A DNA stretch of 49,194 bases, counting the filler, from Candidatus Woesearchaeota archaeon (GTDB lineage Archaea > Nanobdellota > Nanobdellia > Woesearchaeales > DATGWN01), in NCBI GenBank assembly GCA_047603125.1. It is 2 parts of 2 records of this genome, joined end to end, with 100 filler letters (N's around TTAATTAATTAA, not from the genome) between each part and the next. Parts side by side here need not be neighbours in the genome. Positions count along the whole stretch, not along the records: positions 24,786 to 49,194 come from JBLKOU010000015.1; 1 more part is not named here. One strand, given 5' to 3'. The notes under the pieces are model-generated. The model did not search any database, was not told where the DNA came from, and saw nothing but the letters and a program-made list of their open reading frames with translations. Both the position numbers and the translations under genes were made by a program. Positions 23,093 to 41,083 of this stretch are shown here, one piece after another; the stretch's first letter is position 1, and every line of letters begins with the position of its first letter.

Positions 23093-23175
23093 TGCGGGAA
23101 GAGGGGTTCGAACCCTCGTAGGCGTAAGCCAACGGTTCTTGAGACCGCCCCGTTTGACCGCTCCGGCATTCCCGC
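23093..23175 (-). tRNA. tRNA-Leu(CAA)
   Basis: Acceptor GCGGGAA/TTCCCGC, anticodon arm GCGGT-CTCAAGA-ACCGT, long variable arm, GGTTCGAACC T-arm; no CCA. Confidence 0.95.
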
Positions 23176-23232: not shown

Positions 23233-23306
23233 GGGGTCGTGGTCTAGCTTGGTATGATTCAAGGCTGGGGGTCTTGAGGTCGGGAGTTCAAATCTCCCCG
23301 ATCCCA
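23233..23306 (+). tRNA. tRNA-Pro(GGG)
   Basis: Acceptor GGGGTCG/CGATCCC, anticodon arm CAAGG-CTGGGGG-TCTTG, T-arm GGGAG-TTCAAAT-CTCCC; no CCA. Confidence 0.95.
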
Positions 23307-24685: not shown

Positions 24686-24785
24686 NNNNNNNNNNNNNNN
24701 NNNNNNNNNNNNNNNNNNNNNNNNNNNNNTTAATTAATTAANNNNNNNNNNNNNNNNNNNNNNNNNNNNNNNNNNNNNNNNNNNN
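24686..24785. other. Artificial contig-join spacer
   Basis: N44 + TTAATTAATTAA (stops in all six frames) + N44. Confidence 0.98.
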
Positions 24786-37749: not shown

Positions 37750-38778
37750 CTACGAAGGTTGTCTTGCTCCATTCTCTAAATACTCCAAAAACACATCTAA
37801 ATATTTTTGCTCAAATGTAATCCCGCCAGCTTTTTCATGCCCTCCACCAACAACATCAGGAATGTGTTCTTTTACTGCCGAGAGAAATCCACCCGCATCA
37901 AACTCCAATTCTTCTGGAACACGCATACTTGCAATAATGTTCCCCTTGTATTTATTTAAGACAACAATGGGCTTTTCTTTCATATACCGAGAGCAAATCA
38001 CACCCTGAATATTGCAATCACACTCGATAATTGCATAATCAATATCGCCTAATTGTGAAATTCGATATTTTTTATTATAATGTTGGCGCAAATGCATTTT
38101 ATATCGCTGCAATTCCTCCACGAGGGGATGGCGAGAATAAATAATATCTTCAAATGATTGCACTGATTTGAGCAATGCAAGCGGAACTTCACCATTCCAA
38201 TGCATACGTTTGCCTGTGTTAAACAAGGATACAAAAAGTTCTATCTTATAATATGCATCATTGGAATAACGCGACTGCTTTTTCTCCAAAAGTGAGCCAA
38301 GCAACTCATGTGCGCGAATTTGTAAATCAACGGGCAACTGCTCAAACTTTCCACTATCCCCAAAATATCCTAAGAGCACCAGAAATATCATGTATGAATC
38401 AGTCGTATCTTTGAGCAACTTATCCCAAATAAGAAAAGAACAAGATTGGCACTGTGGATCGTATAAAGAAAGTAACATTTCATCCGCATACTCACAAGGA
38501 TGATGGTCAATGTAAATGACTGTATCTAAATCCAACTCCCGACTTGGCTGAATGTCTGAACAAATGATAATTTGCGCCGCAGGGTCAATTTCATCAATAT
38601 CTTGTTGACGAATTTCAAACACATCCCCTTTTGAGACTGTGCGAACACTCTGGCAGACATCTTTTATCATATGATATAATAATGCCCCACTTGTTACCCC
38701 ATCACAATCCCAATGCGTTGCAATGACGACGCGCTTGTCTTTGACAAGATGAAGAAAATGATCATACTGCGAACTCAT
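37750..38778 (-). CDS. DHH/DHHA1 phosphoesterase (RecJ/NrnA-like)
   Basis: HWDCDG, IDHH, SMR, GGGHEKAGG. Confidence 0.92.
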   Translation of the reverse strand: MSSQYDHFLHLVKDKRVVIATHWDCDGVTSGALLYHMIKDVCQSVRTVSKGDVFEIRQQDIDEIDPAAQIIICSDIQPSRELDLDTVIYIDHHPCEYADEMLLSLYDPQCQSCSFLIWDKLLKDTTDSYMIFLVLLGYFGDSGKFEQLPVDLQIRAHELLGSLLEKKQSRYSNDAYYKIELFVSLFNTGKRMHWNGEVPLALLKSVQSFEDIIYSRHPLVEELQRYKMHLRQHYNKKYRISQLGDIDYAIIECDCNIQGVICSRYMKEKPIVVLNKYKGNIIASMRVPEELEFDAGGFLSAVKEHIPDVVGGGHEKAGGITFEQKYLDVFLEYLENGARQPS

Positions 38779-38898
38779 ACAGTGACAATCCCCTAAACAT
38801 TTAAAAATATTGTGTCAGTCTGTCCAGTGCCGTCACCACTCAAAAATTAAAACAAAACCGTAATATTTAAATACTAGTTGTACTTACTCTCTAGTTAA

Positions 38899-39072
38899 CA
38901 CACACCTGCTGTTTGCGCAGCAAAACCTCTTTGTCCTGTTTGGCTCTGCCAAACGGGTCATATTCACCTCTTTTTCCTGCCCAGGTGAGTCCTCGCGGCT
39001 TATTTGGGCAGGTTTAAAGTCACCTCTCATCCCCACGGGTTGTTTGAAAAGACGACCCGGAAGGGATTTTTC
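38899..39072 (+). ncRNA. Candidate four-hairpin sRNA with anti-SD-like linkers
   Basis: TATTTAAATA upstream, four stems with G-U pairs on the + strand, GAAA tetraloop, 3' T-tract. Confidence 0.7.
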
Positions 39073-39099
39073 TTAAATTCAAAGAATAGAGCTTACAAA

Positions 39100-41022
39100 C
39101 TAGCGTTTTGCACGAGCAGGCCGTTTACGTGGCTTTTTCTTGACAATCACTTTTCTTTGTTTTTTTGCTGATTTACGATATGCTCTTACAATATGAGCGC
39201 TCCCAAAACACAGAAGGGAAAACACTAAGCCCACGATAATACCCAGCAAAAAGAGTGCTTCTTTAGGCAATTCTACGTCATTACGAACCGACATTTGACG
39301 AGAAGTTTGACCTCGTTGAGTTGTCGGTAAATACGGATCTAAATTGGATAATTCAATTGCATATTGTAAATACAGCAAACTTGCAAACGGGTCGTGTTCG
39401 CGAAGTGAAATTCCATATTCATAATAAGAATATCCAATTATAGGAAATGCTCCTTGTTGAAATTGATTGAAAATAATCTGATTAGCAATTGCAATCTTCT
39501 CATCAATAAATTGCGAGACATCCGCATTTAATCCAATAGAGGATAAGAGCACATCCATGGACGCTTTTGCTTTTGAAGCATAAAATAGACATAATTCTAC
39601 ATTTCCTCGTTGTCGTTCTTCTTGAGCACGTTCAAGGTCAGGAAATTCTCTTTGTGAGAAAAATGGGTAAAGCTGCACATAACTCCGTCTTTGAGTCGCC
39701 TCATCAATACGAATTGAACATGATTCACGAAGAGCAGATTGTGAGATTTGTATTGGCTCGCCATGATGTGCAAAAAACTTCGACCACGAGTGAGCACTCA
39801 TATATCGTTCCTGCGCATTAACTAAGCGAAAAAGTTTTTGATAATGATTTGTCATATTCTGCGCACGTTCAAAATGATCCTGCGCCTCGACAACTCGCTC
39901 TTGCACTAACATATATGTTTGCAAATCAGTCATTGTTTGATAATTTCGATCAACAGGAGACTCTGCAAATAGCTCTTGAATTGAATCAGATAACTCATCT
40001 AAATCAGTGTGTAAATTCGCTAAGAATGCAGCATTCAAACCCGCCCCATAACAAAACGATGCAGCAGAGTAAAAAGAACCAGACTGCATTGCAGCCTTGC
40101 TTCGCTCCAGTGAATCTTGAACCGCTTGAAATGTCTGATTCACATCAATAGAAGAATTCGGTAAAACAGTTGCATTTCCAGTAATTTGAATCGAATCAGG
40201 AGCAATCTCTATAATTGTTCCATTATTGTTATACATTATATCAAAAGAATCGACAACTTCTTGCGTTCTCTGACAAAGCTGATTGGCAAGTTCACCCATC
40301 GTTTCGGTATAAAATTCAGGTAATGAAATATCAATGTATGAGAGTGAATACTCTCTTCCTGTTAATTCGGTTAGCACATCATATAAATTTCCAACTTTAA
40401 CGACACGAACACCTAGACTCGCACCATATTGCTCAAAAGATTCTCCATTTTCAGGCGTGGAACTTGTTTGATTTGATTCATTAGTCACATTCATCTGGCG
40501 CAAATCACTCATCGCAATCTCACCAACAGGAATCATCACGGTTCTAATTCTATTATTAGAAGCAGCCTCAATTTTTTCTCGAATACCACCGACGGGGCCT
40601 ACCAAACCACCAGAGTTAACTGTTCCTGTTATAGACATACGTCTATTGACTTGATGACCTTCTAGAGTTGCAACTGTTACAGCCGCAATTGCCGCTCCTG
40701 CACTCGGCCCACCAATAACAGTTGAGCCGCTTCGAATAGTATAAATAAAATCATATTGATTACAATCAACTTGTGTAAATGTACATGCAATCTCTTTTGC
40801 AATCCGTGTTGATATTTGCGTATCGAGTTGTGTGAGTGGATATGTATCAATAAAAACTCTGCCAGAACCTGGAATAATTTCAACGGTTAAATCTGCCACA
40901 CTTCCCACACGCCCATTTTCACTTTCGGCAACTGCTAACAACGGCAAAGTGTTTTGCATTGTTTGTGAATACGCAAAAGGCGCAAGTAATGCAAGACATA
41001 CTATAATAATACCCAATCTCAT
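39100..41022 (-). CDS. Membrane-anchored Lon-like (S16) serine protease
   Basis: Signal peptide, PGSGRVF, GGPSAG, TGTV..G.VGPVGGIREK, C-terminal TM and basic tail; no ATPase domain. Confidence 0.9.
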   Translation of the reverse strand: MRLGIIIVCLALLAPFAYSQTMQNTLPLLAVAESENGRVGSVADLTVEIIPGSGRVFIDTYPLTQLDTQISTRIAKEIACTFTQVDCNQYDFIYTIRSGSTVIGGPSAGAAIAAVTVATLEGHQVNRRMSITGTVNSGGLVGPVGGIREKIEAASNNRIRTVMIPVGEIAMSDLRQMNVTNESNQTSSTPENGESFEQYGASLGVRVVKVGNLYDVLTELTGREYSLSYIDISLPEFYTETMGELANQLCQRTQEVVDSFDIMYNNNGTIIEIAPDSIQITGNATVLPNSSIDVNQTFQAVQDSLERSKAAMQSGSFYSAASFCYGAGLNAAFLANLHTDLDELSDSIQELFAESPVDRNYQTMTDLQTYMLVQERVVEAQDHFERAQNMTNHYQKLFRLVNAQERYMSAHSWSKFFAHHGEPIQISQSALRESCSIRIDEATQRRSYVQLYPFFSQREFPDLERAQEERQRGNVELCLFYASKAKASMDVLLSSIGLNADVSQFIDEKIAIANQIIFNQFQQGAFPIIGYSYYEYGISLREHDPFASLLYLQYAIELSNLDPYLPTTQRGQTSRQMSVRNDVELPKEALFLLGIIVGLVFSLLCFGSAHIVRAYRKSAKKQRKVIVKKKPRKRPARAKR

Positions 41023-41083
41023 AGAAAAGACCAAACAGGCACAACTTATAAATATTCTGGAAGTCAAATTAGTGACAACAGAA

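Follow-up and report, generated by a model that had tools for sequence, protein, structure and literature searches.

A short intergenic gap in the genome of a Candidatus Woesearchaeota archaeon (GCA_047603125.1) holds what is, with high probability, a real and conserved RNA gene on the plus strand. Judging from sequence comparison, the core of this RNA belongs to a family that is very probably uncatalogued and class-wide in Woesearchaeota/Pacearchaeota-type DPANN archaea. The locus has a gene-like anatomy and a clear strand, its central unit is conserved and covaries, and copies of this unit are found in viral contigs.

Anatomy of the locus and fold of the RNA

The window, that is, the whole stretch of 49,194 nucleotides analysed here, consists of two contigs (C54 and C55) of a 1.12 Mb assembly in 70 contigs (G000), joined by N runs around a TTAATTAATTAA linker at 24686-24785, a joint across which features are not to be read. 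A run search returned eight DNA runs, lake-water metagenomes from two studies. The locus under study is a gap of 321 bases between two minus-strand ORFs, in which the original prediction had placed an sRNA with four plus-strand hairpins, an upstream TATTTAAATA, linkers and a T-tract at 38864-39072. Every one of these elements was found on reading the sequence, and they are listed here together with the flanking genes. Helices are those of the minimum free energy (MFE) fold of 38895-39075, and bit scores refer to R1, a covariance model built in this analysis.

37750-38778, minus strand: DHH/DHHA1-domain ORF flanking the RNA locus (ORF listing, Pfam domains)
38864-38873, plus strand: TATA-box-like promoter element TATTTAAATA (sequence read; same box in G004 and G003)
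38897-39074, plus strand: predicted sRNA transcript of about 175 nt (strand-specific fold, G-U pairs only on the plus strand)
38901-38922, plus strand: partial anti-Shine-Dalgarno (anti-SD)-like linker CACACCU and hairpin 1 of 6 bp (MFE fold)
38901-38907, plus strand: linker 1, CACACCT (sequence read)
38907-38912/38917-38922, plus strand: helix 1, 6 bp
38924-38960, plus strand: unit 2, with degenerate seed AACCUCUUUGUCC and hairpin 2 of 12 pairs (2.5 bits, E 0.5)
38924-38930, plus strand: linker 2, AACCTCT (sequence read)
38932-38944/38948-38960, plus strand: helix 2, 12 pairs
38957-39019, plus strand: unit 3, canonical, with single-stranded AUUCACCUCUUUUUCC, a 16-bp hairpin at 38976-39012 and UUU (64.7 bits)
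38963-38971, plus strand: linker 3, TTCACCTCT (sequence read)
38970-38973/39016-39019, plus strand: weak extra helix, 4 bp
38976-38991/38997-39012, plus strand: helix 3, 16 bp
39019-39074, plus strand: unit 4, with seed GUCACCUCUCAUCCCC, a nested hairpin of 5 + 10 bp, a GAAA loop and a T5CTT terminator-like tract (5.4 bits, E 0.1)
39019-39027, plus strand: linker 4, GTCACCTCT (sequence read)
39029-39033/39063-39067, plus strand: outer helix 4, 5 bp, enclosing the 10-bp helix
39036-39045/39050-39059, plus strand: inner helix 4, 10 bp
39067-39071, plus strand: T5 run, then CTT (sequence read)
39100-41067, minus strand: Lon_C protease-domain protein of 655 aa flanking the RNA locus (ORF listing, Pfam domain)

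The ends of the predicted transcript are placed by promoter spacing on the 5' side and by the T-tract on the 3' side. As had been proposed, the gap contains a GC-rich island, with a GC content of 0.50-0.54 across 38900-39049 compared with 0.31-0.43 in its flanks. For the plus strand of 38864-39080 the predicted folding energy is -79.4 kcal/mol, and shuffled sequences give -48.4 ± 4.0 kcal/mol (z -7.78, with none of 200 shuffles as good), whereas the minus strand reaches a z of only -2.94. The MFE fold comprises 53 pairs, eight of them G-U or U-G and none A-C, so that all non-Watson-Crick pairs are G-U on the plus strand. Seven of these had already been counted in the stems and were confirmed, the eighth being an extra closing pair (38912/38917), and together with the shuffle test they uphold the assignment of the RNA to the plus strand. 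The linkers, which had been described as single-stranded and anti-SD-like, are indeed predicted to be unpaired (mean probability 0.89-0.99; 0.9 for the UCACCUC part of unit 3), and their sequence resembles the 16S tail. Directly 3' of the unit 3 stem lies GGUUU, at 39011-39015. The suggestion that AGGUGA within stem 3 could switch to pairing with the linkers is not supported: this segment is predicted to be fully paired (unpaired probability 0.00), a fold in which it is made to pair with a linker is 12-16 kcal/mol less favourable, and the stem sequence is conserved only in part of the GTDB family.

None of the known RNA classes compared accounts for the locus. At gathering scores, Rfam 15 matched the whole window only twice, at two divergent tRNA genes (23093-23175, minus strand, 54.3 bits, with a long variable arm; 23233-23306, plus strand, 52.8 bits). 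In E-value mode, the best match over 38700-39200 was Hrs10, at 26.5 bits compared with a cut-off of 108 and on the minus strand, and Rfam scans of six other loci carrying the 17-18-mer gave no match. A fragment of SRP RNA or of RNase P RNA can be dismissed, as both genes sit elsewhere in the genome, on G000:C33 (96.6 bits) and G000:C43 (162.6 bits), respectively. Guide RNAs were also rejected, those of the C/D box type by direct reading of 38864-39080, which holds no UGAUGA, and those of the H/ACA type because the hairpins are continuous helices lacking an internal pocket. The listings and abstract openings from which our literature search was mostly judged held no description of the family or of its motif.

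Among the units of this RNA, unit 3 is the one that stands out, matching R1 with 64.7 bits (E 6.7e-13 genome-wide). It carries (A)UCACCUCUUUUUCC exposed directly 5' of its hairpin, at 38962-38977, and the hairpin itself covaries and is closed by CC(Y)/(R)GG; the U-run after the hairpin and an upstream TATA promoter of its own, which complete the family features, are both present in the window RNA. Units 4 and 2 have the same layout as R1 but score 5.4 and 2.5 bits, and linker 1 is a partial anti-SD match only. Alignment of the whole RNA with G004 and G003, which represent one neighbouring genus, showed that the promoter block and units 2 and 3 are common to all three genomes. The ACTACTCNNTAGTTAT block, like the TATA box, is kept in both relatives, ACTTACTCTCTAGTTAAC after the TATA box is conserved in relatives, and the G004 homologue of unit 2 (in L004) reaches 26.2 bits. 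Hairpin 1 is kept loosely, its register not being retained in that genus, and unit 4 (39019-39067) is an insertion absent from G004 and G003, the only two genomes aligned over the whole RNA. The multivalency originally claimed therefore stands as a description of this locus, where four hairpins and four linkers are real, but not as a feature of the family, since only unit 3 is canonical. The conserved entity is the single unit, and the multivalency of this genome elaborates locally on a tandem arrangement that recurs in the family.

The start of the RNA appears to differ between minimal and extended forms. A TATA-like hexamer occurs within 70 nt in 74 of 139 distinct units from other genomes, and its distance to UCACC peaks at 29-30 nt (21 units). 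The usual archaeal promoter spacing puts the 5' end of the family RNA at about AUCACC, which suggests that, in the minimal form, the anti-SD-like segment would be a 5'-terminal single strand. In the window, the TATA box lies some 100 nt before the canonical seed, as opposed to the 29-30 nt commonest elsewhere, and about 65 nt with two weaker units precede the anti-SD-like segment.

Distribution and covariation of the RNA family

A DNA search of ten genomes of the GTDB family returned matches in nine of them, the common part being linker 3 plus hairpin 3, and each copy is preceded by a TATA box. Eight of these family sequences could be aligned with 22 invariant columns, covering UCACCUCUUUUUCCUG, and they fold into a 17-pair hairpin with compensatory changes in nine pairs. 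Within the order, and at E<=0.01, R1 has matches in 133 of 151 genomes, in 103 of the 116 that are of high quality and in 127 of 144 genera, a tally that takes in three unpublished genomes (G120, G129 and G140), each with a match. In a sample of the phylum, the count was 125 of 151 genomes at E<=0.001, and 26 of these belong to other orders of the class. Among the order matches listed, at least 11 genomes carry tandem copies with a spacing of about 60 nt.

The consensus of 41 matches from 36 sources reads aUCACCUCUUUUUCC(C/U), a stem of free sequence, and (G/A)GGUUUUAUA, with a loop that is often UUCG. In 37 of the 41 aligned units UCACCUCUUUUUCC is unchanged, and the stem sequence varies freely. 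Although the alignment was fitted to the R1 model and thus leans towards structure, 96.4% of its cells are paired and 15 of 17 pairs have changed on both sides. None of 500 shuffles reached the observed values for cells paired, both-side changes, further pair types or covariation score, and control alignments with slid 3' partners gave at most 56% pairing. The search of related genomes with a covariance model, by which the prediction was to be judged, thus found the unit of linker 3 and hairpin 3 conserved, with covariation, across order and class. These data also bear on a reading of the T5 within the unit as the true terminator, which would leave the anti-SD motif at the 3' end of the RNA; this was rejected, as the hairpin downstream covaries and the promoter lies only about 30 nt before the motif in many relatives.

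An exact-pattern scan of species-representative genomes matched at least 120 loci. Most of the 80 pattern loci listed, 15 of which were examined, are labelled as Woesearchaeota, Pacearchaeota or Nanoarchaeota. Five matches outside DPANN, those in Chlorobiaceae, Thalassovita, a deltaproteobacterium, Paenibacillus and Methanolobus (R1 26.7 bits, E 0.004), had weak or unrelated folds and were judged to be chance. Three checked metagenome-assembled genomes are labelled 'uncultured Methanosarcinales'; they measure 1.0-1.5 Mb, and the label says little.

A second non-coding locus of the window's genome, outside the window (L002, G000:C14:255-500), contains the 16-mer CCUCUUUUUCCUGCCC. There, a 12-bp stem (GGUGCUAAGU.../...ACUUAGCACC) closes a large loop that has the motif on its 3' side, and subsequent hairpins present G-rich, SD-like loops (GGGAGGGGUAAGA and GAGGGGUAGGGG). 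Loci in G007 and G006 can be aligned with it over the stem and the motif, and the z of the fold is only -1.9.

Viruses carry the unit as well. The exact family motif led to 13 IMG/VR contigs, all of which match R1 (26.9-49.2 bits), a result that confirms the hairpin but is not an independent survey, given that the set was fetched by a pattern lying within the family signature. From these contigs 40 flanking ORFs were extracted, 30 of which were scanned against Pfam. Six viral loci (L202, L203, L204, L208, L209 and L211) adjoin a large-terminase and/or a portal gene on the same strand, and in two of them (L203 and L204) the RNA sits between the two genes. By eye, TATA-like A/T runs precede the unit in several viral loci. 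In L208, L211 and L203 a further CACCUCCCUGUGUUU-like stretch is seen some 60-90 nt downstream.

The 16S-like segment, its proposed action and candidate targets

The 16S gene of the window's genome ends in GGAUCACCUCCUUUUUUUUC, and those of five other genomes of the class end alike, with a U-rich trailer; GGAUCACCUCCUUU was found in all six genomes read. The family's AUCACCUCUUUUU matches 16S AUCACCUCCUUUU, U-rich trailer included, at 12 of 13 positions. With its exposed near-copy of the 16S tail, the RNA probably acts where translation starts. Transcription, pairing, targets and effect on translation are the parts that we infer, and our preferred reading, to which we give an even chance, is that of an antisense sRNA acting in trans, with an exposed strand that resembles the 16S tail and pairs with purine-rich start regions of a limited number of genes.

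Under this reading, a promoter-driven plus-strand RNA of about 175 nt would be made from 38864-39075. The family unit consists of the exposed (A)UCACCUCUUUUUCC, a stable hairpin that is closed by CC(Y)/(R)GG and otherwise free in sequence, and a U-run. The exposed segment of most relatives lies at or near the predicted 5' end of the RNA; this genome has a 5' extension, and its one canonical unit is flanked by degenerate copies. The exposed segment would base-pair with the initiation regions (AAAAAGAGGUG...) of a few SD-led mRNAs, and this pairing would block or modulate ribosome loading. The hairpin and its flanking U-runs may provide stability, termination and perhaps a binding site for an Sm-like protein; an LSM-domain protein (80 bits) is encoded in the genome, at G000:C25:42429-42617.

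The same likeness to 16S invites another explanation, namely, that the RNA mimics the 16S 3' tail as a decoy for proteins, titrating or recruiting factors of the (pre-)16S 3' end that take part in small-subunit maturation or initiation. Complementarity cannot separate pairing from mimicry, because any copy of the 16S tail scores against SD regions, and the class-wide invariance of 14 nt could equally reflect a protein-binding site. Moreover, the match extends into the U-rich trailer seen in six of six genomes, and each degenerate unit keeps a hairpin beside a tail-like motif, an arrangement loosely reminiscent of helix 45 plus tail. Nevertheless, we regard such a decoy as improbable. The family RNA lacks the GG found before AUCACC in 16S, and its positions -8 to -1 before UCACC are G-poor (G <= 0.15); the motif stands 5' of the hairpin in most relatives, which is the reverse of the 16S order; and the single U-for-C change betters pairing with A-rich AAAGAGG leaders. 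The role as a protein sponge raised in the original prediction is likewise possible. A mimic of the circular pre-16S junction, with 3' and 5' ends joined, was dropped, because its CCGUUGAUCCUGCGGGAGG 5' end resembles only the family-level stem, and this stem is not conserved across the order.

For the antisense reading, the start regions of 1063 crude ORF calls provided the candidate targets. An SD-like motif precedes 284 of these genes, and GAGGTGA only 10. Since SD-led genes are thus a minority, a global repression of leadered mRNAs, as first put forward, looks too broad and is unlikely. At <= -12 kcal/mol, 94 of the 1063 start regions are predicted to pair with the 20-nt seed region, compared with 11 of 893 intragenic windows and with 45-58 of 1063 for five shuffled seeds, which is a modest enrichment, about two-fold over shuffled C/U-rich seeds. 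Many of the most seed-complementary start regions belong to proteins with hydrophobic N-termini resembling signal peptides or pilins.

The 8-mer AAAAGAGG, complementary to CCUCUUUU, has 101 occurrences in the genome, of which 26 fall immediately upstream of ORF starts, and the genes it leads include a PEP synthase/PPDK-family enzyme, GAPDH and a DeoC/LacD aldolase (all Pfam-confirmed). In several genomes, GAPDH and the PEP synthase-family gene often share a contig and are separated by a few kb. AAAGAGG, commonly as AAAAAGAGGUG, was found in the PEP synthase leaders of 18 of 28 usable top-scoring loci (from a set of 29, one excluded as too near a contig end), and of 18 of 27 when genomes with the sRNA are counted. 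By eye, further sRNA-positive genomes with more divergent enzymes gave 11 of 20, a count that omits two script-flagged cases (G081 and G093) with the motif away from the start site. Genomes with no R1 match gave 2 of 10, after G049 and G099, whose start is ambiguous, and G034, a paralogue-level match only, had been dropped. The count for GAPDH leaders was 7 of 30. Fisher's test yields p 0.03 for PEP synthase leaders with versus without the sRNA, and p 0.001 for PEP synthase versus GAPDH, values that should be read with the relatedness of the genomes in mind, as these are not independent, with starts set by alignment and eye, and with 'no R1 match' not being proof of absence. The PEP synthase/PPDK-family mRNA is the best candidate for a conserved target, a lead rather than a result.

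The A before GAGG would pair with the U of the sRNA and would oppose a C in the 16S tail, so that AAAGAGG leaders are a closer fit to the sRNA than to the ribosome. In two genomes, complementarity between the PEP synthase leader and the local sRNA extends over 18-19 nt and includes half of the hairpin stem:

L013 (G006), 388-459: leader of a PEP synthase-family gene complementary to the sRNA
L022 (G002), about 1486-1527: leader of a PEP synthase-family gene complementary to the sRNA

These are only two of the 11 PEP synthase loci in ten family genomes, and such complementarity is missing from G005, which shares its genus with G006. When matched to R1, the opposite strand at the G006 leader reaches 22 bits, which makes a cis-antisense paralogue possible there.

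Genomic neighbours, known systems and biological meaning

The flanking ORFs of 33 loci across the order were compared by BLASTP. In 13 of them, the gene just downstream is convergent and encodes a protein homologous to the window's Lon_C protein (E<=1e-59), and the DHH protein is the upstream neighbour in two. In ten of the 33 loci (L030, L035, L037, L039, L040, L042, L045, L046, L048 and L051), a protein of about 170 aa is encoded divergently upstream. Its N-terminal motif, CxxC...CxxCF..EKRIRK, resembles the zinc-ribbon start of tRNA thiolation enzymes, and the three copies scanned (L030, L042 and L045) had no Pfam match.

The recurrent protease neighbour raises the question of whether the RNA is a cis or antisense element of this convergent gene, either as a bidirectional terminator or as one of two overlapping transcripts that regulate each other. 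In L004 and L007 (G004 and G003), the stop-to-stop frame of the Lon-like protease even reaches the RNA core and its terminal hairpin, in a tail-to-tail overlap. The synteny with Lon_C is real but partial: the neighbour is missing at 20 of the 33 loci, the viral copies, which are without it, sit among terminase and portal genes, and in the window the ORF ends 25 nt past the T-tract. The G-U pairs and the covariation are, in addition, specific to the RNA strand, and a terminator would not need a conserved single strand. We therefore consider a cis element to be quite improbable.

A feature of the minus strand is scarcely credible. It would be a leader in which SD-like AGAGGUGA motifs accompany small ORFs, for instance one of 25 codons at the ATG after GAGGTGAAT. 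In its favour, every linker gives a good SD when read in reverse complement, GAGGTGAATATG stands at the head of a short ORF and a 50-aa minus-strand ORF spans 38884-39036. Against it, this strand folds much more poorly, every G-U pair would turn into a C-A mismatch, and about two-fifths of the 41 units have no start-codon complement beside the SD complement (eight upstream bases, by eye). Across the core of eight family loci, moreover, neither strand has a consistent open frame and all are short (antisense frames of 25-62 codons, the protease frame in G004 and G003 excepted), which led us to reject a conserved micro-ORF.

Returning to a trans-acting sRNA, the closest archaeal cases found are sRNA41 and sRNA154 of Methanosarcina mazei, intergenic sRNAs with anti-RBS sequences that mask the RBS of their targets and repress translation, sRNA41 acting on several RBSs of one polycistronic mRNA (PMC5867862). 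The likeness is one of functional description only: as far as that account goes, the anti-SD sequences of the window family lie in 5'-proximal or linker single strands and not in loops, and it is the window family that has a near-copy of the 16S tail, invariant across a class, arranged in tandem and carried by viruses. In layout, the family unit also resembles the bacterial sRNAs of the Hfq type, with a conserved single-stranded seed at or near the 5' end, then U5, a stable hairpin and, behind that, a U-run; it differs from them in its archaeal host, in an LSM protein instead of Hfq and in a seed that is an anti-SD. Such Hfq-dependent sRNAs have a 5'-terminal seed, a U-rich stretch, a terminator hairpin and a U tail. 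Among other bacterial RNAs, RsaE/RoxS are C/U-rich anti-SD sRNAs and CsrB is a multivalent sponge that binds its protein through GGA loops. With these the window RNA shares repeated, pyrimidine-rich, SD-directed motifs or repeats on a hairpin scaffold, while sequence and host are unrelated, and its repeats are linkers of which one in four is canonical.

Our literature search, limited to the portions of the sources that could be consulted, turned up no regulatory RNA described for these uncultured, host-dependent archaea. If class-wide presence, the near-copy of the 16S tail and viral carriage hold together, the family would offer a new handle on their translation control, to which the window contributes a multi-unit variant and target leads; one would then also ask whether viruses of archaea interfere with the selection of start sites. 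R1 could be used for annotating hundreds of metagenome-assembled genomes, and the PEP synthase leader offers a first testable target. It is tempting to speculate further, although we think it rather doubtful, that DPANN archaea of the Woesearchaeota/Pacearchaeota class and their head-tail viruses encode a near-copy of the ribosome's own tail that competes for SD sequences and so re-partitions translation, with PEP synthase as a conserved direct target, with viruses using it to take over host translation, and with multivalency in this genome arising by duplication of the unit. If true, this would mean a shift in translation between SD-led and leaderless or SD-less mRNAs.
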